64,000 nucleotides of DNA from Vicinamibacteria bacterium (GTDB lineage: Bacteria > Acidobacteriota > Vicinamibacteria > Marinacidobacterales > Marinacidobacteraceae): assembly GCA_964291235.2 (NCBI GenBank), contig OZ219816.1, positions 1,632,001 through 1,696,000 on the forward strand, given 5' to 3'. The stretch's first letter is position 1; each line of letters starts with the position of its first letter. Shown here piece by piece: positions 36,869-49,710 of this stretch. The notes under the pieces are model-generated. The model saw only the letters and a program-made list of their open reading frames with translations, had not been told where the DNA came from and searched no databases. Made by a program: the position numbers and the translations under genes.

Positions 36869-36883
36869 GGGCGCGGCCGGCCA

Positions 36884-37101
36884 GGAGCGCCGGCCTCCGG
36901 CCGGCATCGCCGAGCGTAGCGAGGCGAAACTCCCAAGCCTGATCTGCCAGGATGGCGCCGCAGCCCAGCGGCGTGGCGCAGCGTCGCTCGTGCGGCCATA
37001 GAGCGCTACGCCGTCCCCGTTTGGGTCCGCGCCAACGGCGATGATCAAGTCTGGGAGTTTCGCGGCCTGCGGCCGCGATGCCGGCCGGAGGCCGGCGCTC
37101 C
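36884..37101. mobile_element. ~220-bp REP-bounded non-autonomous element (REPIN/MITE-like), copy A
   Basis: Terminal inverted REPs GGAGCGCCGGCCTCCGGCCGGCA; the reverse complement aligns throughout with 55930-56168. Confidence 0.75.
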
Positions 37102-37147
37102 TAGCCCATAGAATCGGCGGGTTCTTGCCCGTTTGGAGGTAGTGCGC

Positions 37148-40100: not shown

Positions 40101-40465
40101 TCGGCAGCCACGGCCAGCTCCAGGGACTCGGCGCCCACTGGGAGATCTGGGCGCTCCAGTCGGGCGGGCTGACCGAGCACGAAACGCTCATCGCCGCCAC
40201 CTATTTCGGAGCGGAGGCGATCGGCTTCGCCGAGGACCTGGGAACGCTCGAGGCCGGCAAGCTGGCCGACATCCAGATCCTCGACGCCGATCCTCTCGCG
40301 GACATCCGCAACACGAACTCGGTCCGTTTCGTGATGCGGAACGGCGAACTGTTCGACGCGAACACCATGGCCCAGCTCTGGCCGGTGGAGCAGCCGGCGC
40401 CGGATCGGTTCTGGGTGGGTGACAACCCGCCCTCGCCGTCGAGCGGATCGGGGACGGGGCGCTGA
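37148..40465 (+). CDS. Secreted TolB/PD40 beta-propeller plus amidohydrolase fusion protein
   Basis: EGTWMSLDVSPDG--IVF-LLGDLY, multiple P--SPDG repeats, PG-VDAHAH, YGVTT--DP, HGQLQG and GKLAD. Confidence 0.92.
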   Translation: MRFRLLPSLFAGGILILLSVAGTFGQSEEEAEEKKEETLPLAASDTLSFTVTEGTWMSLDVSPDGQTIVFELLGDLYTLPIGGGEATRIIGGLSFESQPVFSPDGAEIAFLSDRSGVENLWIANADGSDPRAVTKDGPTRDRPQLMVSPSWTADGDYLLVSKSRPPERTAAVFLIHRDGGSGVRLGEKPPEPTPGVSGAQPPNRLGAVASPDGRYVYVSERRGTFNYNAQFPIWQVVRFDRETGEETTITSAPGSAMRPLLTPDGGHLVYATRHRTQTALRVRDLATGAERWLVNGVTRDDQESRASRDTMPGYAFTPDGSALIATVDGGFRRIDFETGAMTAIPFEAQVEAEIAPRLHFPRRVDDGPTVTARIIRWPRLAPDGSAVVFSAFSRLYRMDLPGGTPARLTDSDEDEFMPAWSPDGSTVAYVTWSSTGGHLKTVPAAGGSGSAITSDPAFYAEPAWNPAGDAVVIRRAPVKEHLYSFLRASWGKTDLYADEDEIGGMRAAELSELLLVPAAGGDVTVIGPAEGGRFPHFTNDPDRVYLTGAGAGLYSLELDGSDRRTHLKVTGRGAGANPPPAGHIMLSPDGDRAFFELQNRHYLVEIPSFGKQTLEVKVGGGETPVPVREVAPEGGDHLAWSPSGDAVVWSLGNRIYRQDAAAIGGEDDLTPDTFDAVVTEPRARPSGQILLKDAARVLTMDGEEIIEGGDVLVEDNRIAAVGAELEAPEGARVFDVSGKTVMPGYVDAHAHMWAPRGVHQRQVFQHLANLAYGVTTTRDPQTSTADVFAYRDLQEIGRILAPRIYATGPGIFSRSGVYDADAADDFLKRYAESYDAITIKQYVVGDRIVRQWVAMASMKHQLIPTTEGALDLKLDLTQMADGFSGNEHSLPIVPIYDDVAQYVARTQTYYTPTILVAYGGPWSENYYFQNTDVVGDEKLARFIPAAILDNMVRRRGQWFLPEEYVHSGISEGCMKVMRAGGRCALGSHGQLQGLGAHWEIWALQSGGLTEHETLIAATYFGAEAIGFAEDLGTLEAGKLADIQILDADPLADIRNTNSVRFVMRNGELFDANTMAQLWPVEQPAPDRFWVGDNPPSPSSGSGTGR

Positions 40466-40848
40466 GGGCTTTCAGCCCATCGTCCTTCGCGCGCCGATGA
40501 GCTGCGCGCGCCCCGTCCCCGATCCGCCCGGCGCTTCGCGCCGGAAATCGAAACTCCCTGGTGCGCTCGCCGCGCACTGCGGCGAGTTCCGATTTGGCGT
40601 CTTCGTCTTGTGAAAGGGGGGGTGCCCCCCCTTTCACACTTTCCCCCCGGTGTCGAGCGGTTCGGGGACGGGGCGCTGAGGGCTTTCAACCCATCGTCCT
40701 GCGCGCTCCGATGAGCTGCGCGCGCCCCGTCCCCGATCCGCCCGGCACTTCGTGCCGGAAATCGAAACTCCCTTGTGCGCTCGACGCGCACTGCGGCGAG
40801 TTCCGATTTGGCGTCTTCGTCTTGTGAAAGGGGGGTGCCCCCCTTTCA
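40438..40848. repeat. Two tandem ~210-bp hairpin-rich repeats (40438-40651 and 40652-40848)
   Basis: Near-identical copies, each with four stem-loops; copy 2 is cut after CCCCCTTTCA and its tail reappears at 49049-49073. Confidence 0.9.
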
Positions 40849-41031
40849 TCCATAGTGAATGGCTCCTGCATGTTCCCAGAAGGGCATACACGAGCCTATA
40901 GTGCAAGAACACCAAGGGATTAGGGCCTGATACCGATTCCCGTGCTGCCCGCTTCCGTCCTGCCGAAGCGCTACACTTCTCGCCGATTGCGAGGGCCAAT
41001 AGGGGGGCCTCGTCACCTCGGAGGCGGCAAT

Positions 41032-42180
41032 ATGGCGAACATGACCGCAGCAAGGGCAAAGGCCCTCAAAGAACCCGGGCGCTACGGCGCGGGCGGCGGC
41101 CTCTACCTGCGGATTCGGGCCACCAAAGTGTGGGTCCAACGCTTGACCGTCAACGGCGTCCGCCGCGACATCACCATCGGACCCTTCGACTTGGTGCCGC
41201 TCGCCGAGGCCCGCATGGTCGCCCTCCAGAACCGCCGCGCCCTGTGGGAGGGGAAGGACCCCATCGCCGAGCGCCGCCGCGGCACCGTCCCGACGTTTTC
41301 CGAAGCGGCGGAGCGGACGCTGGCGGAGCGGAGGGCGAACTGGCGGGGCGACGGGTACGCGCGGGCGTGGGAGCGGACGCTGGCGCGGTATGTCTTCCCC
41401 GCGCTCGGAGCGATGCGTGTGGACGCGATTCGCGGGGATGACGTGCTCCGGGTGCTCTTCCAGGACGACCTGTGGAACCGGAAGCCGACCACCGCCCAGC
41501 GGGTGCGCCAGCAGATCCGTACCGTGCTGGGCTGGGCGCAGGCGCGGGAGTTCGTCGAGCGGAACGTGGCGGGCGAGGCGATCGAGGGCGCGCTCCCGAA
41601 ACGGCGGCGCCGTCCGAGGAGCCATCGCGCCCTGCCGCACGCCGAGGTGCGCGAGCTGCTGGCGAAGGTCGAGGGGTCGCGGTCGCGGGCGGCGGTCCGC
41701 CTCTGCCTCCGGTTCCTGATCCTGACGGCGGCGCGCAGTGGCGAGGCGCGGGGCGCGCGCTGGTCGGAGATCGATGTGGACAACCGCACCTGGACGCTTC
41801 CCGGCGAGCGCATGAAGGCCGGGAAGGAGCACCGCGTTCCCCTGAGTCCGCAGGCGGTGGCGGTCCTGGAGCGCGCCCGCCGGTTGCGGAGCCGGAAGGG
41901 GTGCGAGCTGGTGTTCCCCGGACGTTCGGGGGATCGGGAGTTGAAGGACATGGCGCTGACGAACGCGCTGTGGGCGGCGGGGGTGGGCGAGCGTGCGACG
42001 GTTCACGGGTTCCGCTCGACGTTCAGCGACTGGAGCGCCGAGCAGGGGAACGCGCCGATGCTGGCGGAGGCGGCGCTGGCCCATACGGTCCAGGGCGTCG
42101 AAGGCGCTTATCGGCGGACCGATCTGTTCGACGAGCGAAGGCCGGTGATGGACGCTTGGGGGGAGTACGTCGGGGGGTAA
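41032..42180 (+). CDS. Tyrosine recombinase/integrase, P4-like with N-terminal arm-binding domain
   Basis: GGAGG RBS; PGRY--G-GLYL, G-DP--ERR, LTAARSGE-RGA-WSEID, MK-G-EH-VPL, HGFRSTF, LAH and AY-R. Confidence 0.95.
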   Translation: MANMTAARAKALKEPGRYGAGGGLYLRIRATKVWVQRLTVNGVRRDITIGPFDLVPLAEARMVALQNRRALWEGKDPIAERRRGTVPTFSEAAERTLAERRANWRGDGYARAWERTLARYVFPALGAMRVDAIRGDDVLRVLFQDDLWNRKPTTAQRVRQQIRTVLGWAQAREFVERNVAGEAIEGALPKRRRRPRSHRALPHAEVRELLAKVEGSRSRAAVRLCLRFLILTAARSGEARGARWSEIDVDNRTWTLPGERMKAGKEHRVPLSPQAVAVLERARRLRSRKGCELVFPGRSGDRELKDMALTNALWAAGVGERATVHGFRSTFSDWSAEQGNAPMLAEAALAHTVQGVEGAYRRTDLFDERRPVMDAWGEYVGG

Positions 42181-42434
42181 GTCCGACTCGGAGGCTACGG
42201 GGACCACCGGCTACCAGTGTCCACAGCCGCGCTCGCGGTGCTCCGCGAGCCGAGAGCGTTCGCCACCGGCTCGGAGCCGGCATTCCCCCTCGGCGCGGAC
42301 CGGCCCGCTGTTTGACGGGGCGATCTCGAGGCCGGTTCGTCAACTCGGGATCGGTGAGGTGCCGCGTCGAGCCGCCAGCTTCTCGGTGAGGAGCATCGGC
42401 GCGGTCGAGGTCCCAGGATGGTCCCCATCCCTGA

Positions 42435-42640
42435 GGCTGGCTAACGTGCTTATGCACGAGGGCCAGCATACCCATTGTGTACACAATGGGACTGGCGAGG
42501 GAGGCTGCGCCCCCCTTCGAACCCCCGGCCCTTCGCGCCGCTACGGGAGCACCGGGCGGACGGGGCGCCGCCCCCGGACCCCCGCACCGGTTGCGCTCCT
42601 GGCGGAGCGGCTGGTTGCTGACCGCCTCGCGCAGGCGGAC
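42435..42640 (-). other. oriT-like element, copy 1
   Basis: Perfect 20-bp palindrome CCCATTGTGTACACAATGGG (42471-42490) followed on the minus strand by TATGCTGGC; inverted homolog of 45603-45810. Confidence 0.5.
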
Positions 42641-42751
42641 CAAGCGCCCTCTGATCACCCCGGTGGACCGCGACCCGGCGAACCCGTTCGGGGTCCACCA
42701 CATGCGCTGTCTTTCCTGCACGGGGGTCCTCGAAGTACGACCGGCTGCGAG

Positions 42752-43771
42752 TCAGATGCGCGGTCCCCGGAGTACGGGGTCGCGGCGGAGACGGTCGAGC
42801 GCCTGCTGTTGCAATTGCCGCGCCCGCTCCGTGCTGACGTGGAGGCTCCGTCCGACTTCGGCAAGGCTGGATTCTTGGCCGTCCGCAAGGCCGAATCGCA
42901 TCTCCAGGAGGTGTCGGAGGCGCTCCGGCAAGTGAGAGAGGGCGACGCGCAGACGCCGCCACTGCTCGGTACCGGCCGCGGTCTCGCACGGATCCGGGGA
43001 CCCGGGATCCGGAAGCGACAGAACCCACGGGAGGCCGTTCGTAGCGGGGGACGTGTCGAGCGACTCGATGTCGGATACCAGAACGATCGTGGAGCGCAGT
43101 TGCTCGACGCTGACTCCCAGCTCTCGAGCTGCGTGTTCGGTCGTGTGGGGCGGGCGTCTATCCCCCGTGCAACACGCGTTGCCAGACCGTTGTTCCTCGT
43201 GTGCCTCCACCTCGCAGGCGTGCCGCCGGAGCTCAAGGCGGCGTAAGGGAATACGAATCGTCCTCGACTGTTGGGAGAGCGCCCGGCAGATCGTCTGGCG
43301 AATCCACCCAGCGGCGTAGGCGCAGAAACTCCGGCCCGGCTTCGGTTCGAACCGACGGGCCGCGTGCAGGAGTCCGAGGTTGCCCTCCTGGATGAGGTCG
43401 CCGAGTGGCAGTCCGAGGTTCCGGTAGCTCTTCGCGATGGTGACGACGAGGCCCAGGTTGCTCTCGACCATCCGCTCACGGCCGAACTCGCCGTTGAACT
43501 GTTTGCGGGGGGCGGCGTAAATGCCATCCGGATCGGTTGCCCCGTCCGGTCGCGGGGCGCGTCGGCACCGCCGGGGCTCACTCCCGCGGAACCGGCGATG
43601 CCGGCGCCCGTCCTGGACGTAGAGCGCTATCAAATCCAGATCGGCTTGCCCGTGCGCCTCCGCGTCCGTTTCGCTCGGTGCGCGTGCTTCGCACGAGAGG
43701 CGCTCTTCTCCGGGTTCCTCCGCGTCATACGCGAGGTCTGGGTGTTCCCACTCAGAGTTCGGAGTCGCCAT
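42752..43771 (-). CDS. Divergent RpoD/RpoS-type sigma-70 factor
   Basis: Region 2 ESNLGLVV-IAK-Y---GL---DLIQEGNLGL--A--RF and WIRQ-I-RAL----RTIRIP; region 4 RFGL------SL-EVG--L-VS-ER-RQ. Confidence 0.88.
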   Translation of the reverse strand: MATPNSEWEHPDLAYDAEEPGEERLSCEARAPSETDAEAHGQADLDLIALYVQDGRRHRRFRGSEPRRCRRAPRPDGATDPDGIYAAPRKQFNGEFGRERMVESNLGLVVTIAKSYRNLGLPLGDLIQEGNLGLLHAARRFEPKPGRSFCAYAAGWIRQTICRALSQQSRTIRIPLRRLELRRHACEVEAHEEQRSGNACCTGDRRPPHTTEHAARELGVSVEQLRSTIVLVSDIESLDTSPATNGLPWVLSLPDPGSPDPCETAAGTEQWRRLRVALSHLPERLRHLLEMRFGLADGQESSLAEVGRSLHVSTERARQLQQQALDRLRRDPVLRGPRI

Positions 43772-43846
43772 GACAGCCTCTTCGTGGAGCGTCCGGCCGG
43801 AACGCCTTCCCTGGATCAGACAAGGATGTTTTGTGCCCGAATGAAC

Positions 43847-44242
43847 TCAGCTCGGCTGCTTCGAGACAGAGGTGGTCTCGGCGCGGAGGGCCGGGCTGAC
43901 GGCCAACCCGTAGCCGATGGAGTTCCACAGGGAAATCGCGAGCCAAAAGCCAACGTCGTGGAGAATCCCGAGCGGTTCACCCAACAGAACGCCCCAGTAG
44001 TTGTGGACGACGATGGCAAAAGCGCCGGCCAAACCAACGGCGAGAACGGCTCCGATGCCGGCGCTCACGAGGACGGGAGGCTCTGGCCGTGTCTTCAGCC
44101 ACCCGCCGATCGACGACCAAACCAGGGTGCCGACCAGAGTGCCCGCAAACATCGTAGTCGCCGCAACAACGGCGTCGGGAAGGACTCCACGGATTTCCGA
44201 AGCGCCTTCGAAGAGCACGAAGGCGAAGACGCCGGCAGCCAT
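43847..44242 (-). CDS. Small multi-pass membrane protein
   Basis: About four hydrophobic segments; co-oriented directly downstream of the peptide genes; start uncertain. Confidence 0.6.
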   Translation of the reverse strand: MAAGVFAFVLFEGASEIRGVLPDAVVAATTMFAGTLVGTLVWSSIGGWLKTRPEPPVLVSAGIGAVLAVGLAGAFAIVVHNYWGVLLGEPLGILHDVGFWLAISLWNSIGYGLAVSPALRAETTSVSKQPS

Positions 44243-44277
44243 CCCGCCGCTAAACGCTGCAACCTTCCGTTGTGACC

Positions 44278-44613
44278 CTAGATATTGCACTGGGAGATCT
44301 CCTCGTCCCGAATCCGGCGGCACTCGTCCTTCCGTTCCTGGTGCCGGGCGTGCACTTCCAGGAGGCATTGTTCGATGCGGCGCGGAAGGATGCGCCGCTT
44401 GCAGCGCGCGGCCTCCGCAAGGGAGTCCGCCTGCGCCTGATCTTCGCAGGCGTCGGCCCTCTCGATTGCCTCATCAATGCAGCAGGTGGCACCGGCAGAG
44501 ACGACCACAGCGTGCATGAAGGCAAAGGTGAAAACGATGAGGACGCCGAGACCTCTCGAAGCAGGAGGCGTCGTCGCGCGACGACGATGAGGCAAACGGA
44601 CTAGATGTTGCAT
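44278..44613 (-). CDS. Secreted Cys-rich helical peptide 1 (C-CX10CX14CX11CX14CX10C-NI)
   Basis: Hydrophobic leader ending MHAVVVSAGA-TCC; paralog of 44601-44870; start overlaps the upstream stop. Confidence 0.75.
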   Translation of the reverse strand: MQHLVRLPHRRRATTPPASRGLGVLIVFTFAFMHAVVVSAGATCCIDEAIERADACEDQAQADSLAEAARCKRRILPRRIEQCLLEVHARHQERKDECRRIRDEEISQCNI

Positions 44614-44870
44614 TCTCTCATCTCTCGATCTCGAATCTGGCGGCACTCCGCCTTCCGCTCGTTTAGCCTGTCGAGCGCTCTCTGCCGACACGCGTTGTCA
44701 GTGATTCCGCACCGCTGAGCTGCAACGATGGCATCGTATTCCGCCTTGTCGATGCAGTAGTCGTACCTCTCCAGCACGCGGTCAAGGCAGCAGGTCGCGC
44801 CGGCGAGCCCGATGACCGCGTGCATGATGACGAAGGCGATGGCGAGGAGGAGTCGGGAACCGGGGTTCAT
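44601..44870 (-). CDS. Secreted Cys-rich helical peptide 2 (C-CX10CX14CX6CX14CX10C-NI)
   Basis: 89 aa; leader ending MHAVIGLAGA-TCC; shares ERK-ECR-IRD-E---CNI with peptide 1. Confidence 0.8.
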   Translation of the reverse strand: MNPGSRLLLAIAFVIMHAVIGLAGATCCLDRVLERYDYCIDKAEYDAIVAAQRCGITDNACRQRALDRLNERKAECRQIRDREMRECNI

Positions 44871-44916
44871 CTGTCTTGCCTTCGCCGTAGATCCTCCAAA
44901 CACGGGACTTGGCACT

Positions 44917-45315
44917 TCAGCGCTCCAGGATGTCCGTCAGCAGCACCCGCAGGTGCTTAGCGTCCCGACTCCGGCTCTCCTCCATTTCGAGGCGCCACCG
45001 CTTGAGCTGTTCCTCGGAGGCGCCGGCACCGCGAAACGCGGCGAGCACGCGCGCGTCCGAGTCCTCCTCGATTCGACGAGCCTGCCCAACGTGAAGAGCG
45101 ACATGCTCCTTGAGGCCGAGTGCGGAATGGCCGGCCACGGACTGGCCGGCCGGTCCGACGAGTTCCAGCGGTGCGTGGCTCGGTGCCGGAACCGGAGCAG
45201 TAGGAGCGTCCCCCGCGGGGCCGGCCGCCGGAGGGATCACCGGAGTGTCACAGGCCAGCGCGATTGCGACCGCGGCCAGGGGAATCACGGCCAGGTGGAT
45301 GGGTCGTAGTCTCAT
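44917..45315 (-). CDS. Hypothetical lipoprotein
   Basis: MRLRPIHLAVIPLAAVAIALAC lipobox-like leader and Pro-rich linker. Confidence 0.55.
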   Translation of the reverse strand: MRLRPIHLAVIPLAAVAIALACDTPVIPPAAGPAGDAPTAPVPAPSHAPLELVGPAGQSVAGHSALGLKEHVALHVGQARRIEEDSDARVLAAFRGAGASEEQLKRWRLEMEESRSRDAKHLRVLLTDILER

Positions 45316-45602
45316 GCCAATTACGTTCAACACGCCGGAGCACATCTTTCAAGGGGCAAATGTCGGCTTCCTTGACTTGGCGGAGGGAAGGAGAGCGAAA
45401 CGCGGAGCGCAGACGGTCGGATAGCAAGCTCCGATCGCCCCGGGCTCGCGCGATTCGCGGCAATTTGGGCCGCCTATGTCCCGCGGCAGCGCCGTAATGC
45501 CCGCTGGCCGCGGAAGGGGCCACGTCGCCGCCCACGACCCCGTTGGCCCGCTCCTCGACGTTGGGGACCCGGAGGGCCTCCGCCGGGCCGGAGGCGGCCT
45601 GT

Positions 45603-45810
45603 GCCGCCCGCGGGAGGCGGTCAGCAACCGCAGCGGTGCGCCGCTCCGCCGGGAGCGCACCGGTGCGGGGGTCCGGGGGCAGTGCTCCCGTCCGCTCGGT
45701 GCTCCCGCAGCGGCGCGATTGGCCGGGGGTTCGAAGGGGGGCGCAGCATCCCCTCGCCAGAGCCCAGTGTTTCACACTGGGTAGGCTGGCCTAGCATCAA
45801 GTGGCCAGCC
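45603..45810 (+). other. oriT-like element, copy 2
   Basis: GGGGTTCGAAGGGGGGCGCAGC...CTCGCCAG, hairpin CCCAGTGT-TTC-ACACTGGG (45763-45781), then TAGGCTGGC and a second hairpin. Confidence 0.5.
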
Positions 45811-45961
45811 GGCTGTGGCGCTCTCATCGGCCGTAGTGGCCTTGGTGAGAACCGTCGCCAAGGCGCACGAAGGGCGCTGCTGTGGTCATGCTCGCTACCG
45901 CGAACGAGGGTGCCCGTGCCGCTCCAGCATACGCCCAACCGCGAAGCAGGGGGGAATACAA

Positions 45962-46526
45962 GGTAGTAGCTCAGTTTGAACTTGACACGCGGACCGACGC
46001 TGTGAAAGCTCCAGAGGGTACCTCGACCGAGGAGGCCCGAATCTATGCGTTTCCGTTTCACAATCACGCTTGCCCTCTTGGGGGGGGGGGCTGGTCGCCG
46101 GGACGGCGCTTGCGTCGCCAGTTCTTGACATCCGCGCGTCACTGGAGGCACACATTGCGGCCCCAGGCGTGCGCGCCCTGCCCCATTCGGCGGGCGCTCA
46201 GGATGATGACCTGCTACGCCGCCGGTGCCTCAGACAGGCGGAAGCGGCACTCCGGGAGTGCCAGGACACCGACGGGCAGGACTGCACCCGAATCTACGAA
46301 ACGCAGGTGGATGTGTGCTTGGCCACTTATCCGCAGGAAGAGGGCTGGGTGACGGTCTACAAGTGGTATCTCTTGGGCTCCGCCGGGGTCTTAGTGATGT
46401 GGCTGCTTTTGTCCTGAGGCGCAGGCCAATGACCTGACGGAGTCGCTCGCCAAGCCACGCGGCGGAGTCGCGGCTCCCCACCTGCCGTTGGCAGCCAAGG
46501 AACCGTAGTTTCAAACTGATATACGC
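45962..46526. mobile_element. IS-end-flanked passenger cassette without transposase
   Basis: GGTAGTAGCTCAGTTTGAA at 45962 and inverted TTCAAACTGA at about 46510 enclose a single gene. Confidence 0.5.
46045..46417 (+). CDS. Exported CX10C-X7-CX10C protein with C-terminal TM anchor; frameshifted in G11 tract (46080-46090)
   Basis: GAGGAGG RBS; MRFRFTITLALLG then poly-G; removing one G joins to LVAGTALA-S...CLRQAEAALRECQDTDGQDCTRIYETQVDVC...WYLLGSAGVLVMWLLLS. Confidence 0.65.
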
Positions 46527-47265: not shown

Positions 47266-48858
47266 CTACCGGTACCGCGCGTTCCACCAATCCGGGTGCG
47301 GCATCGTCATCCCATTCCTGTTCTCGGCCCACTCGAAGAAGTCCCGGTTGTCCACTCTGTGGGTGAGCACTCGCCGGAACGCTTGCACCAGGCTAGCTCC
47401 CGCGCCGCCGGTCTCGAGGTAGTGCAGCACGTCGTCGCTGTTGTCGAAGGACACTCCGCGGTGGTTGACGAACGCAATGAAGTCGCGGGCAAAGGGTTCG
47501 AAATCCGCGCACGAGTGGAGGTAGGTGGCCTGCGGCCACCGCTTCTTCACCATGTCGTTGCGCGAATACTCGAAGGCGAGGCGGTTGAGGTCGATGCGGG
47601 CCGCGAGCACGGTGCGCAGCTCTTCCGATTCTCTGAACAACCGGTGGTACTGCAACTCGGCATTCGTCTCCTGGAACTTTTCCCGGGTCCATTCGTCGAA
47701 GCTGTAGTTGCCTTGAGGCATATCGGACGCGACGTAGTACTGCGCGAACCGGCAGAAGTTCGTCAGATCCTCGTATCCCGACTTGTTGCACGGGCCGCCC
47801 ATGTCGATCACCCCCAGCGGCCGTCCGAGTTCCTGCGTCCAGTGCGCCAACATGTCGGCCGCGTCGTCGTACGTCAATCGGAATTCGAAGAGACGTCCGC
47901 CGGCGGCGCCGTGCCCGTGGTAGTTCAGATGGTGCTCTGAGTCGGGGTACCGTGACACGAGATAGTTCGCGATCCTCTTGAACGTTTCGCGGAGGAAGCG
48001 GCTGACCTCGGGAGAGGAGTTCTCGTGCGGCGGCGGAAGCGGCATCCCGGGGAAGGCCAGGACCCGGAAGCTCTCACGGTAGGCCGTGTATTCCTCCGGC
48101 GTGATGTCTTCGTCGAGACCTCGGTGGGGGTTGAACGAGGCGGGGAATTCGTAGACGTGGACCGCACGGATCTCCTCCCAGAGAACGGCCTCGACGTACT
48201 TGAGGTTCGGGCTCTCTTTCAGGGGAACGCCCACGTCCCACGCCCCGTCGCCTTCCGCCACGAACGGAGTCCAGTCTTCGTTCACCATGACCGCCCGCAG
48301 CATGAGGTGATGCCGGTCGTGTTCCTGGAGGGGTGTCTGAACCTCGTGGGTCAGCACGACCCGGTCCTCGTGCCGTATTTCCACGGTGGACGCGCCGGGC
48401 TCGACCGCGCGCCAGTCCCAATAGCCGTTTCCACGCTTCCGTAAAGGGAGGACCGCAGAATTCGTCGAGACCGCCGCCAAATCGCCAGGATCCTCGTAGG
48501 GGCTCCCGTCGAGGAAAACGGCGAACGTGCCCTCGTGCCCCCAGTCCACGTCTTCCGGAACGGGGGGCGAGGGTTCGAAAGTAAACGCTCCCGCTGGCGT
48601 TTGCGGTTCTGGGGGCGGCGGGGTCGCGGGGGAGGGCGTCGCCATGGGTTCGTCCCCCCGGCATCCGGAGCCGAGGCTGCTGGCGACGAAGAGCATGATC
48701 GCGAGGGCGATCCGCCAACGCTCCCTGCCCGGCGCTGGCCGTTCGATTTCGCATCGGTGGAGGGATCCGCGCGCCAGGCCTCGGCGGCCTGGGCGACGGT
48801 AACAGCGATTGGCTTGGAGGAGGCCGGGCGCGGTGAGACGATCGATGGTGTAAGTCAT
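47266..48858 (-). CDS. Putative lipoprotein with clostripain-like (clan CD) cysteine peptidase domain
   Basis: GGAGG RBS; LGSGC lipobox-like; YP-----L-YHGHG--G, LGVIDMGGPC-K---E and YYVASD echo the C11 His-Gly/Cys dyad context. Confidence 0.55.
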   Translation of the reverse strand: MTYTIDRLTAPGLLQANRCYRRPGRRGLARGSLHRCEIERPAPGRERWRIALAIMLFVASSLGSGCRGDEPMATPSPATPPPPEPQTPAGAFTFEPSPPVPEDVDWGHEGTFAVFLDGSPYEDPGDLAAVSTNSAVLPLRKRGNGYWDWRAVEPGASTVEIRHEDRVVLTHEVQTPLQEHDRHHLMLRAVMVNEDWTPFVAEGDGAWDVGVPLKESPNLKYVEAVLWEEIRAVHVYEFPASFNPHRGLDEDITPEEYTAYRESFRVLAFPGMPLPPPHENSSPEVSRFLRETFKRIANYLVSRYPDSEHHLNYHGHGAAGGRLFEFRLTYDDAADMLAHWTQELGRPLGVIDMGGPCNKSGYEDLTNFCRFAQYYVASDMPQGNYSFDEWTREKFQETNAELQYHRLFRESEELRTVLAARIDLNRLAFEYSRNDMVKKRWPQATYLHSCADFEPFARDFIAFVNHRGVSFDNSDDVLHYLETGGAGASLVQAFRRVLTHRVDNRDFFEWAENRNGMTMPHPDWWNARYR

Positions 48859-49079
48859 GCGAGTGCCTCCGGAGATCGAGTTCCATCCTAATGGCTGGCG
48901 GATCCGGAAGGAGCACAGTTCTCCCGCGCAGGCTCAAAACTCCCCGTAAGACCCCATCCGCGCGGGGGGCCGCGGCGGGGGCCGGCGCAGCGGATCGGTC
49001 TCCGTAAACACAATGGAGTCAATGGGTTACGAGTGCGACCGGCGCGGACCCCCTTTCACACTTTCCCCCCGGTCACGCC

Positions 49080-49110
49080 GGCAGCGAACAAAGTTCGCTG
49101 CCATTTTTTT
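49080..49110 (+). terminator. Intrinsic terminator-like hairpin
   Basis: GGCAGCGAAC-aaa-GTTCGCTGCC followed by a T7 run. Confidence 0.55.
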
Positions 49111-49212
49111 CGCCCTCGTGGCGATAAACCCGCCACCCAGACGGGGATGCCGCAACGCCCCCGTGCCCGCCTGCGGCACCGCAGCTCTCCTCCCCCACCG
49201 CGCGCAGGAAAA

Positions 49213-49710
49213 GGAGCGCCGGCCTCCGGCCGGCATCGCGGCCGCAGGCCGCGAAACTCACGTAGTAGTCCGCCGCACCGCAGCCCTTCCCCCCCAACGG
49301 CGCGCGGGCAAGGGAACGCCGACCTCCAGGTCGGCACAGCCCGCCGCAGGCGGGCGGCAGTGAGTACCCCCCTTCAGCCCCAAGGCGCGCGACAACGGAA
49401 CGCCGGCCAGTTCTCCGGGCCTCCGGCCGCGAAACTCACGCAGTTCATCCGCCGCACAGCACCCAGCCAAACGGGGACAGCGCAACGCCCGGTGCCCTGG
49501 CGCCACCAAGGCTGCTGGGATCCACGCCGAGAGGGGAGCCATCCTGGCGCTGAGGGTCCGTCCCGTCGCCCGCCTTCGGCGGGCTGTGCCGGTGTGGACA
49601 CCGGCGTTCCCTTGCGGTCCCGGCCGTCTGCGCAAGGGTGAGAGACAGCCCAGCGCCGCCGGCTCATTGGATGCAGACAGCGGAGCGCCGGCCGGTTCTC
49701 CGGGCGCGGG
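49213..49710. repeat. Cluster of REP-like palindromes and degenerate REP-element segments
   Basis: Copies at 49213, 49313, 49397, 49585 and 49681; includes GCATCGCGGCCGCAGGCCGCGAAACTC shared with the ~220-bp elements. Confidence 0.75.

Follow-up and report, generated by a model that had tools for sequence, protein, structure and literature searches.

Helical hairpins stapled by disulfide bonds are already well known from mitochondria and plants. In the mitochondrial intermembrane space, the CHCH proteins with twin CX9C motifs and the small Tims with twin CX3C motifs adopt a helix-turn-helix fold with nested disulfides between mirrored cysteines; these eukaryotic proteins have two rungs at a spacing of 9 or 3, carry no signal peptide and depend on Mia40 for import. 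The alpha-hairpinins of plants are much shorter than the peptides described below. They carry the motif C-X3-C-Xn-C-X3-C, or C-X3-C-X3-C-X4-20-C-X3-C-X3-C in the 6C form, and the sections of the survey used here report a search of plant transcriptomes and mention no prokaryote (PMC11591084). Among bacteria, according to the excerpts cited, gallocin A is a two-peptide bacteriocin whose helical hairpins each contain a single disulfide and whose operon has the immunity gene in third place (PMC10100652), and CnrYXH of Cupriavidus metallidurans is an autoregulated operon that encodes a sigma factor, a small anti-sigma protein of the membrane and a dimeric, membrane-anchored sensor with four helices in the periplasm (PMC6851896). 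Here we describe two adjacent genes, pepA and pepB, in a 64,000-nucleotide stretch of a Vicinamibacteria bacterium genome (contig OZ219816.1, positions 1,632,001 to 1,696,000; the stretch is called the window and the genome G000 below). Their products are most likely helical hairpins pinned by three cysteine bridges. The set of genes to which they belong, comprising a lipoprotein, the hairpin, a small membrane protein and a sigma factor, is undescribed and is so far found only in one marine Acidobacteria family. What is new is the specific hairpin family, with its three-rung and five-rung, heterodimeric and lipoprotein-fused forms, and its place in a sigma-linked, sometimes integrase-borne module.

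The pepB gene (44,601–44,870, minus strand) encodes an 89-residue precursor with a leader, TCC, seven cysteines, a central loop of 6 residues and a C-terminal CNI. The 111-residue precursor of pepA (44,278–44,613, minus strand) follows the same plan, with an Arg-rich N-terminus ahead of the leader and a loop of 11 residues. An alternative GTG start of pepB at 44,915 would give a product of 104 residues and abuts the stop codon of the lipoprotein gene. Both leaders are hydrophobic, contain M-H-A and end in AGA, and the T-C-C that follows opens the shared pattern CC-x10-C-x14-C-loop-C-x14-C-x10-C-NI. The initial annotation of this DNA, made from the letters alone, had reported two paralogous seven-cysteine reading frames with leader, TCC and CNI, and it is confirmed to the residue, on the minus strand and where it had placed them. 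Its mirror spacings of 10-14-6-14-10 and 10-14-11-14-10 are also the same on recounting, the gaps between successive cysteines being 0, 10, 14, 6, 14, 10 in pepB and 0, 10, 14, 11, 14, 10 in pepA. Its remark that the residues between the cysteines diverge strongly was overstated: the paralogues are 44–48% identical, and many non-cysteine positions are invariant in an alignment of 15 sequences (M16, H17, R35, D37, D41, A43, A51, R68, E71, R72, K73, R77, R80, D81 and E83). The ATG of pepA overlaps the stop codon of pepB, and the GTG of the membrane protein gene that follows (memb) overlaps the stop codon of pepA. In one frame the overlapping nucleotides give ..ECNI*, and in the next they give MQ[HY]L (pepA starts MQHL and memb VQYLGS). 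Such overlapping stops and starts are the usual signature of translational coupling, here a putative one.

The cysteine pattern is rare and under selection. Among the 36,097 six-frame open reading frames (ORFs) of at least 50 residues in G000, the exact spacing occurs only four times, namely in the two genes of each of two cassette copies. Another 21 mirror-type matches are confined to four ORFs made up of short-period repeats, interpreted here as tandem DNA repeats in translation. Residue-shuffled ORFs gave 0–3 mirror matches of any spacing per genome. Since the exact spacing is found only in the cassette copies and the shuffled sets come near nil, the pattern goes beyond chance. It is kept in 15 of 16 aligned family sequences, with loops of 4, 6, 8, 9 or 11 residues that always differ by whole codons. 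The ratio of nonsynonymous to synonymous substitution rates (dN/dS) is 0.29 and 0.32 between the two copies in G000, 0.26 and 0.23 against the orthologues in a congeneric genome, and 0.26 between pepA and pepB; these values of 0.23–0.32 indicate purifying selection and thus real coding genes.

The structure of the peptides was modelled with AlphaFold2. Based on the 15-sequence alignment, pepB is predicted to form a helix at residues 3–53, a turn at 54–58 and a second helix at 59–86, with a mean predicted local distance difference test (pLDDT) score of 86.5 and ten-residue blocks of 88–96 across the mature part. A relative with 10 cysteines, from G019, is likewise modelled as a hairpin (helices 32–60 and 67–93, ten-residue blocks 84–97). 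The antiparallel alpha-helical hairpin surmised in the initial annotation is therefore borne out by confident models of pepB and of this relative.

The most informative evidence for the disulfide ladder comes from relatives in sister genera, found with a broader profile. These contain 10 or 11 cysteines at gaps of 3, 6, 10, 3, [loop 5–10], 3, 10, 6, 3. When they are aligned with pepA and pepB, the six scaffold cysteines coincide, and the four extra ones lie one turn inside C2 and C7 and one turn outside C4 and C5, so that two cysteine pairs are added at exactly mirrored positions. All four are present together in each of the 6 sequences of the 10/11-cysteine branch and absent together in all 8 seven-cysteine sequences of the same alignment. 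This paired gain or loss at mirrored sites is covariation evidence for a nested antiparallel ladder, the best that we obtained. Counted per helix, the mirrored positions sum to a constant (i + j) in every member. The seven-cysteine form has positions {0,11,26} with {0,15,26}, the ten-cysteine form {0,4,11,22,26} with {0,4,15,22,26}, and all of them fall within {0,4,11,15,22,26}, an 11-residue or three-turn register, as would be the case if two straight helices were bound alongside each other. The invariant small residues A43 and A51 sit between the rungs. The nested pairing C2-C7, C3-C6 and C4-C5 proposed earlier is consistent with the strict mirror symmetry and gains strength from the mirrored extra pairs; it is on this covariation that we infer the disulfides. 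Furthermore, G000 encodes a VKOR domain and three DsbA-like proteins, which means that enzymes for extracytoplasmic disulfide formation are present.

With their predicted two helices and the putative nested pairing of mirrored cysteines, these hairpins would resemble the CHCH proteins and small Tims, which live in a compartment to which the periplasm corresponds. Unlike them, the pepA/pepB family would have three or five rungs in an 11-residue register (gaps of 10/14 or 3/6/10/3), and it has a Sec-type leader and a bacterial origin. The twin CX9C or CX3C spacing is not found in pepA and pepB, whose gaps are 10 and 14, and the C-x3-C of the ten-cysteine relatives lies within their five-rung pattern. 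A trace of zf-Tim10_DDP appeared in one of six Cys-hairpin proteins scanned, below threshold (E 0.096, 12.7 bits against a cut-off of 22.3). Plant alpha-hairpinins share the helix-loop-helix plan, the presumed secretion and the mirror cysteine motif, with two to three nested disulfides in their case; in the account cited they are plant defence peptides of uniform spacing 3, and pepA and pepB contain no C-x3-C (PMC11591084).

Searches of Pfam and NCBIfam gave no match for the peptides, the lipoprotein or the four-segment membrane protein of the locus (4-TM protein, the product of memb); for pepA and pepB this holds in Pfam at E ≤ 0.1. A sequence search of the PDB with the family profile returned one chance row (E 0.73). 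The initial annotation had recognised no bacterial family with this spacing, and the Pfam, NCBIfam and PDB searches, which yielded no family match, agree with it. With Foldseek, neither hairpin model retrieved a PDB row at E ≤ 0.001, only generic hairpins. The best row for the ten-cysteine model was 4okv_F, the anopheline anti-platelet protein (root-mean-square deviation 1.6 Å over 59 columns, TM-score 0.78 on the target), which also ranked fifth for pepB; the E-values of 0.19 and 1.2 are not significant, and this insect salivary protein is a shape analogue only. A wide structure search with VIA-align peaked at Z = 9.3 and returned 32 chains of Z ≥ 8, a range common for helical models, and the best scores in the ESM Atlas, 0.86 for the 4-TM protein and 0.78 for the lipoprotein, pointed to no family. 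Across the family libraries, the PDB and the literature, no bacterial family already described as having such a multi-rung ladder was found. The relatives constitute a natural series on one scaffold, with three-rung, five-rung, free, heterodimeric and lipoprotein-fused members, useful for studies of periplasmic oxidative folding and as a hyperstable mini-protein scaffold.

Complex prediction suggests that the two paralogues probably pair. Mature pepA and pepB together scored 0.76, against 0.03 for the best of three controls; the mark applied to this score is reached by 58 of 80 solved complexes and by 2 of 110 mismatched pairs. The runs agree in at least 93% of contacts, with a partner pLDDT of at least 87. 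In the predicted dimer, a parallel four-helix bundle, family-invariant residues make reciprocal contacts (D37 of pepB with R99 of pepA, and R77 of pepB with D54 of pepA), and none of the listed interface residues is a cysteine. L29 and I46, each directly after a CC doublet, are in contact in the model, which would make neighbours of the spare cysteines of the two chains. The cysteine counts are in line with this arrangement: at loci with two peptides (G000, G008 and G024) the count is odd, 7 or 11, with a CC doublet, whereas the peptides of single-peptide loci (G019, G020 and G022) have 10 cysteines and no doublet. The restriction of odd counts and doublets to loci that encode two peptides points to pairing through the spare cysteine, although it amounts to about two independent contrasts only.

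For this spare cysteine, lipidation or dimerisation had been proposed. The lipobox of bacterial lipoproteins has the motif [LVI][ASTVI][GAS]-C. Residues −3 to −1 of the first cysteine are G-A-T in both pepA and pepB, and G-[AP]-T, G-A-N, G-N-A, G-S-G or D-A-Q in the relatives. Lipidation is thus disfavoured, G-A-T before the cysteine being no lipobox, and dimerisation receives indirect support from the complex prediction and the odd cysteine counts.

The initial annotation had spoken of tandem secreted peptides. Their genes do not stand alone, being two genes of a minus-strand operon running from 45,315 to 42,752, in which five tightly packed genes follow in the order lipoprotein, pepB, pepA, memb and sigma factor. 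The first gene (44,917–45,315, minus strand) encodes a lipoprotein with a signal peptide, an L-A-C lipobox, a Pro/Ala-rich linker and a helical domain of about 70 residues with a conserved G-x-S-E-E-Q-L stretch. A CpxP/Spy-like identity, brought to mind by the LTxxQ-like look of the "SEEQ" stretch, found no support in the family searches. The 147-residue 4-TM protein (memb, 43,847–44,290, minus strand, GTG start) has four hydrophobic segments joined by short loops, about 15 residues before the first of them and an "LWNS" motif. The last gene (42,752–43,771, minus strand) encodes a sigma-70-family factor with regions 2 and 4, RpoS/RpoD-like. Its best NCBIfam rows are of the RpoS and RpoD types (150–171 bits, far below the equivalog cut-offs), and regions 2 and 4 span residues 98–330. 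In PADLOC, the sigma factor alone matched, to MzaA (100.7 bits; in NCBIfam 158 bits against a cut-off of 800), through its generic sigma part; the other five cassette proteins matched zero families, and a known anti-phage defence system, MZA included, was rejected on these grounds. A sigma paralogue elsewhere in the genome (G000:C2:425153-426178) has no module adjoining.

A promoter-like element, TTGAAA-N16-TTGAAC (45,325–45,352, minus strand), ends 9 nt before the ATG of the lipoprotein gene, a distance at which the operon mRNA may be leaderless. The bipartite pattern TTGA[AC][AG]-N16-[CT]T[AG]A[AC][CT], defined after the sequences had been seen, has two matches on both strands of the 6.9 Mb of G000, each in front of one cassette copy, and, in coding-strand orientation, lies 5' of the lipoprotein gene in 7 of 8 unfused regions, including all the sigma-linked ones. 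A scan for consensus promoters and terminators returned 0 sites of either kind. The operon sits in a duplicated block of 5.2 kb (40,724–45,889), whose second copy (G000:C2:564851-570090) is inverted and 94–96% identical. The block also holds, convergent with the operon, a tyrosine integrase gene (40,942–42,180, plus strand) with Arm-DNA-binding, central and catalytic domains. The genome contains a third, partial copy of the integrase, window positions 41,142–42,195 matching C2:560712-561765 at 94%.

For the distribution of the family, the protein collections were searched with the first profile, and the ten-cysteine and fused forms were traced within genome sets. The first profile retrieved seven proteins among 1.84 billion representatives; one of them, P0021, is a translated tandem repeat and was dropped, which left six clusters. 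With the same profile, one of 401 genomes of the phylum (G000 itself) and four of 55 genomes of the order were positive. A scan of a genome-contig collection gave one locus, in G008, and that of metagenome contigs one near-identical contig of 2.2 kb; the plasmid and phage collections held no match, and no phage record matches pepB. Within the bacterial family, the broader profile was positive in 7 of 28 genomes, and all queries together identified 12 distinct loci in 10 of the 28 genomes and 6 of the 7 genera.

The gene neighbourhood is conserved. The order lipoprotein, peptide(s), 4-TM protein recurs in G000 (both copies), G008, G019, G020, G022 and G024, and the congeneric G008 has the full order lipoprotein, pepB, pepA, memb and sigma, with no integrase nearby. 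Members of the 4-TM family were found in 6 of 28 genomes, at module loci only. Ten of the 12 distinct loci have a sigma paralogue next to them, in one or other of two arrangements. In G000, G008 and G021 the sigma gene shares an operon with the module, which is reminiscent of autoregulated sigma operons with modulators of their own. The two loci lacking an adjacent sigma gene are the one in G024, which an IS5-like transposase splits, and that on a short contig of G021. The two peptides of G024 come with a membrane protein each; against the 4-TM family of the G000 type these membrane proteins score 6.2 and 3.4 bits, within shuffled controls (top 13.3), and appear to be positional analogues only. 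The transposase ORF of G024 (L030, 7684-8508, minus strand), called by eye from the translation, stands between the two peptide/membrane-protein pairs. In G008 the sigma orthologue (L019, 7137-8167, plus strand) matches residues 1–21 of the G000 protein in one frame and residues 22–337 in another; a frameshift, an error in the sequence or a true start farther downstream could each explain this.

At five loci the hairpin is fused to the lipoprotein (a second locus in G008, G001, G010, contig C5 of G021, and G023). In the second G008 locus, which was found through the 4-TM profile, the lipoprotein, linker, helical domain and ten-cysteine hairpin form one polypeptide. The hairpin follows the linker and helical domain there and in G001 and G010, and stands directly after the linker in G021 C5; the G023 copy is truncated. 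A "GLWN" 4-TM protein gene downstream and a divergent sigma gene accompany the fused loci, except that the short contig G021 C5 shows neither. Contig G001:C17 bears three copies of the fused locus (L060, L063 and L064), 99.7–100% identical over at least 3.4 kb, each adjoining the C-terminal end of an integrase, so the fused type of module also multiplies within a genome.

In the rest of the phylum, the ten-cysteine profile gave weak matches in six genomes (E 5.7e-5 to 3.6e-3); among five of those six loci, a mirror ladder was seen only in G323 and possibly in G171. The G323 locus (L043, G323:C121, 853-1818, minus strand), from another acidobacterial family, encodes a 322-residue secreted protein with a different N-terminal mirror ladder, C-3-C-6-C-3-C-6-C-[7]-C-6-C-3-C-6-C-3-C, with a poly-Pro linker and then a DUF5648-like domain behind it. 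This protein suggests that ladder hairpins make up a broader superfamily whose members serve as N-terminal modules. The G171 locus (L046, G171:C24, 1130-1621, plus strand) is a 164-residue ORF with C-3-C-10-C-6-C, 58 mostly hydrophobic residues and C-6-C-10-C-1-C-1-C, and may represent a ladder hairpin with a membrane hairpin as its loop.

We give about an even chance to the reading that pepA and pepB are the periplasmic part of a sigma-coupled envelope sensing or signalling module. Both peptides would be exported by Sec and oxidised outside the cytoplasm, and each would fold as a straight antiparallel two-helix hairpin with the three nested disulfides. Packed side by side and in parallel, they would form a four-helix heterodimer that brings the spare first cysteines together, probably in an intermolecular disulfide. 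This dimer would be the periplasmic component of a four-part module, alongside the lipoprotein, the 4-TM protein and a dedicated sigma-70-family factor, with hairpins single or paired. In G000 all parts would be co-transcribed from the one promoter-like element, with coupled translation, and the whole would act as an envelope-resident unit tied to its sigma factor with a CnrYXH-like logic, pepA/pepB being the sensor or the ligand and the sigma factor presumably under the control of the module. Like CnrYXH, the locus combines a helical periplasmic part, a small membrane protein and a sigma gene last in one operon (PMC6851896), and the link of the sigma gene to periplasmic and membrane partners holds at 10 of 12 loci. 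No sequence similarity between CnrYXH and the module was found. Unlike the module, as far as the cited sections describe the system, CnrH is a sigma factor of the extracytoplasmic function (ECF) type, CnrY is single-pass with a 45-residue cytoplasmic anti-sigma segment, and CnrX, which lacks a disulfide ladder, uses His, Glu and Met to bind metal (PMC6851896). The lipoprotein fusion at five loci argues that the hairpin works at the envelope and not as a diffusible toxin, and the repeated linkage to one sigma clade in two gene arrangements argues for a functional tie.

Several observations weigh against this reading. With about 15 cytoplasmic N-terminal residues, against 45 in CnrY (excerpt of PMC6851896), the 4-TM protein would make a poor classical anti-sigma factor, and the sigma factor itself is not of the ECF type (99.7 bits against the sigma70-ECF superfamily model, which ranks 18). 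The promoter pattern, drawn up post hoc, is absent in G024 and in three of the four fused loci tested and present in the other. The complex test passes close cousins too, so that it does not separate heterodimer from homodimer. One metagenomic member, P0018, fits the ladder poorly, with Gly in place of C3 and C6 retained. The seven-cysteine form is patchy (2 of 16 genomes of the genus by the peptide profile). At the main locus of G021 (L029, G021:C36, 5963-8122, minus strand) the peptides have been deleted and the lipoprotein runs in frame into the last 16 peptide codons; two 4-TM copies follow each other with no stop codon between them, and the sigma gene remains whole. In G000 and G001 the integrase-borne cassette exists in several copies, which also fits an accessory competition or selfish-element set. 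Finally, AlphaFold2 draws the leader of pepB continuous with helix 1 as one helix, and on this model the leader may be an uncleaved anchor.

It is possible, though not probable, that the seven-cysteine branch indeed keeps its leader, pepA and pepB then being bitopic inner-membrane proteins, with the N-terminus inside, the hairpin outside and their transmembrane helices packed against the 4-TM protein. Such a topology is compatible with the sigma-coupled module and incompatible with "secreted peptides". Across the family alignment, a basic n-region precedes a hydrophobic stretch of 19–22 residues, in which M-H is almost invariant (the His in 15 of 16 sequences), and this length and conservation would suit an anchor, as would the single leader–helix 1 rod of the model and the Arg-rich N-terminus of pepA. 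The predicted dimer is parallel, so both anchors could share one membrane, and CnrX is likewise membrane-anchored in the cited excerpt (PMC6851896). On the other side, all members have a small-x-small site (A-G-A or L-A-G) before TCC, and in the ten-cysteine relatives a linker of 8–12 residues comes after the leader, which is modelled as a helix of its own at low confidence, as for a cleaved signal peptide.

As for the sigma-coupled envelope module, a more specific form of it is doubtful but worth stating: a trans-envelope signalling unit for a non-ECF sigma-70 factor, in which the ladder hairpin, free, Cys-heterodimerised or lipoprotein-tethered, would be a periplasmic sensor that could respond to redox or envelope state, the 4-TM protein would be a minimal transducer to its own sigma factor, and the circuit, complete with its own promoter, would multiply as an integrase-borne cassette of about 5 kb. 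The link to one sigma clade suggests that this uncultured and little-studied lineage of marine Acidobacteria has a regulatory module not yet characterised, and the compactness of the module, with five genes and one promoter-like site, makes it directly testable in a heterologous host.

The main rival of the sigma-coupled module is a two-peptide bacteriocin or toxin with its immunity, in which pepA and pepB would be a stapled antimicrobial, the 4-TM protein would confer immunity, the lipoprotein would aid release and the sigma factor would be a dedicated activator; we regard it as unlikely. Gallocin A, the closest described bacterial analogue, and similar class IIb bacteriocins likewise have two adjacent paralogous peptide genes, modelled helical hairpins and, next in the operon, the gene of a small protein, in their case a protective one (PMC10100652, as excerpted). 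A tandem pair of paralogous exported peptides with a small polytopic membrane protein encoded after them is what such a system would show, as are the separate membrane protein for each peptide in G024, the patchy distribution, the integrase and insertion sequence (IS) context and the multi-copy cassettes. G021, moreover, retains the membrane genes after loss of the peptides, as orphan immunity genes do. The properties of the peptides, however, argue otherwise. The mature forms are acidic to neutral (isoelectric point 4.6–6.2 in 10 of 11 computed), highly charged (21–46% charged residues) and hydrophilic (grand average of hydropathy, GRAVY, −0.3 to −1.15); the seven-cysteine branch, with a GRAVY of −0.8 to −1.15 and 38–46% charged residues, is unlike the hydrophobic or amphipathic, membrane-inserting mature peptides of class IIb. 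Gallocin peptides, by the cited account, have few charges, insert into and permeabilise membranes, are made with a double-glycine leader and an ABC transporter in Firmicutes, and come with neither sigma factor nor lipoprotein (PMC10100652). The leaders of pepA and pepB are instead Sec-type, ending in A-G-A and lacking a double glycine, and no ABC or C39 exporter was seen among the cassette genes. The same hairpin is held at the envelope, covalently within a lipoprotein, at five loci; nothing in the dN/dS values indicates diversifying selection; widespread orphan members of the 4-TM family were not found; and sigma linkage at 10 of 12 loci is unusual for bacteriocins. The suggestion of an effector, antimicrobial or signalling family is thus narrowed: the lipoprotein fusions, the hydrophilic peptides and the lack of an exporter in the cassette weaken its first two terms, and signalling is the nearest guess.

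A role in thiol metal binding or redox buffering appears very unlikely. In this scheme a reduced cysteine face would bind a soft metal such as Cu(I), either between the helices or within the dimer core, or the peptides would serve as a sacrificial periplasmic redox buffer. Copper storage proteins (Csp) bind Cu(I) by cysteine-lined helices in a comparable way. The spacings of 11 and 15 would line up all cysteines of a helix along a single face, a four-helix bundle is predicted for the dimer, several His lie near the cysteines in the 10/11-cysteine relatives, and sigma-linked periplasmic metal sensors exist, for example CnrX (cited excerpt of PMC6851896). The i + j mirror symmetry, the paired gain of cysteines and the small Ala between rungs are, by contrast, predictions of covalent rungs. 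The seven-cysteine branch has no conserved His or Met beside its cysteines, the compartment has DsbA and VKOR, and the listed interface residues of the complex model are not cysteines.

A remnant phage lysis cassette, with the lipoprotein as o-spanin, the peptides as membrane-anchored i-spanins and the 4-TM protein as holin, is suggested by the integrase in the duplicated block and by likeness to spanins, which pair a Pro-rich lipoprotein with an N-terminally anchored helical periplasmic protein and form intermolecular disulfides, but it is close to refuted: the peptide, lipoprotein and 4-TM proteins have no PHROGs match at E ≤ 0.01 (only generic sigma and integrase matches arose), pepB is unmatched in phage records, no endolysin or phage structural gene is present among the genes examined in and beside the cassette, and the gene set is chromosomal, comes with a sigma factor and spans six genera.

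The surroundings of the cassette show further features. Just outside the duplicated block, an ORF of 115 residues (46,070–46,417, plus strand) has a four-cysteine mirror, C-x10-C-x7-C-x10-C, and a hydrophobic C-terminal tail; its GC content by codon position is coding-like (0.69/0.50/0.77), and neither the rest of the genome nor the retrieved loci contain a homologue. An ORF of 530 residues (47,266–48,858, minus strand) has a lipobox-like signal and a Pro-rich linker; it falls in no Pfam family, and its sole match is the NCBIfam "lipo-invert" anchoring domain (E 0.022, 15.1 bits against a cut-off of 37). Short dispersed repeats of about 100–230 bp lie at window positions 36,878–37,106, 40,438–40,848, 42,461–42,611, 45,591–45,791 and 49,048–49,633, two of which flank or interrupt the cassette. 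Both contigs carry them, in dozens to hundreds of copies of which some are arranged in tandem or inverted, and they look like repetitive extragenic palindromic (REP) or miniature inverted-repeat transposable element (MITE) type elements.

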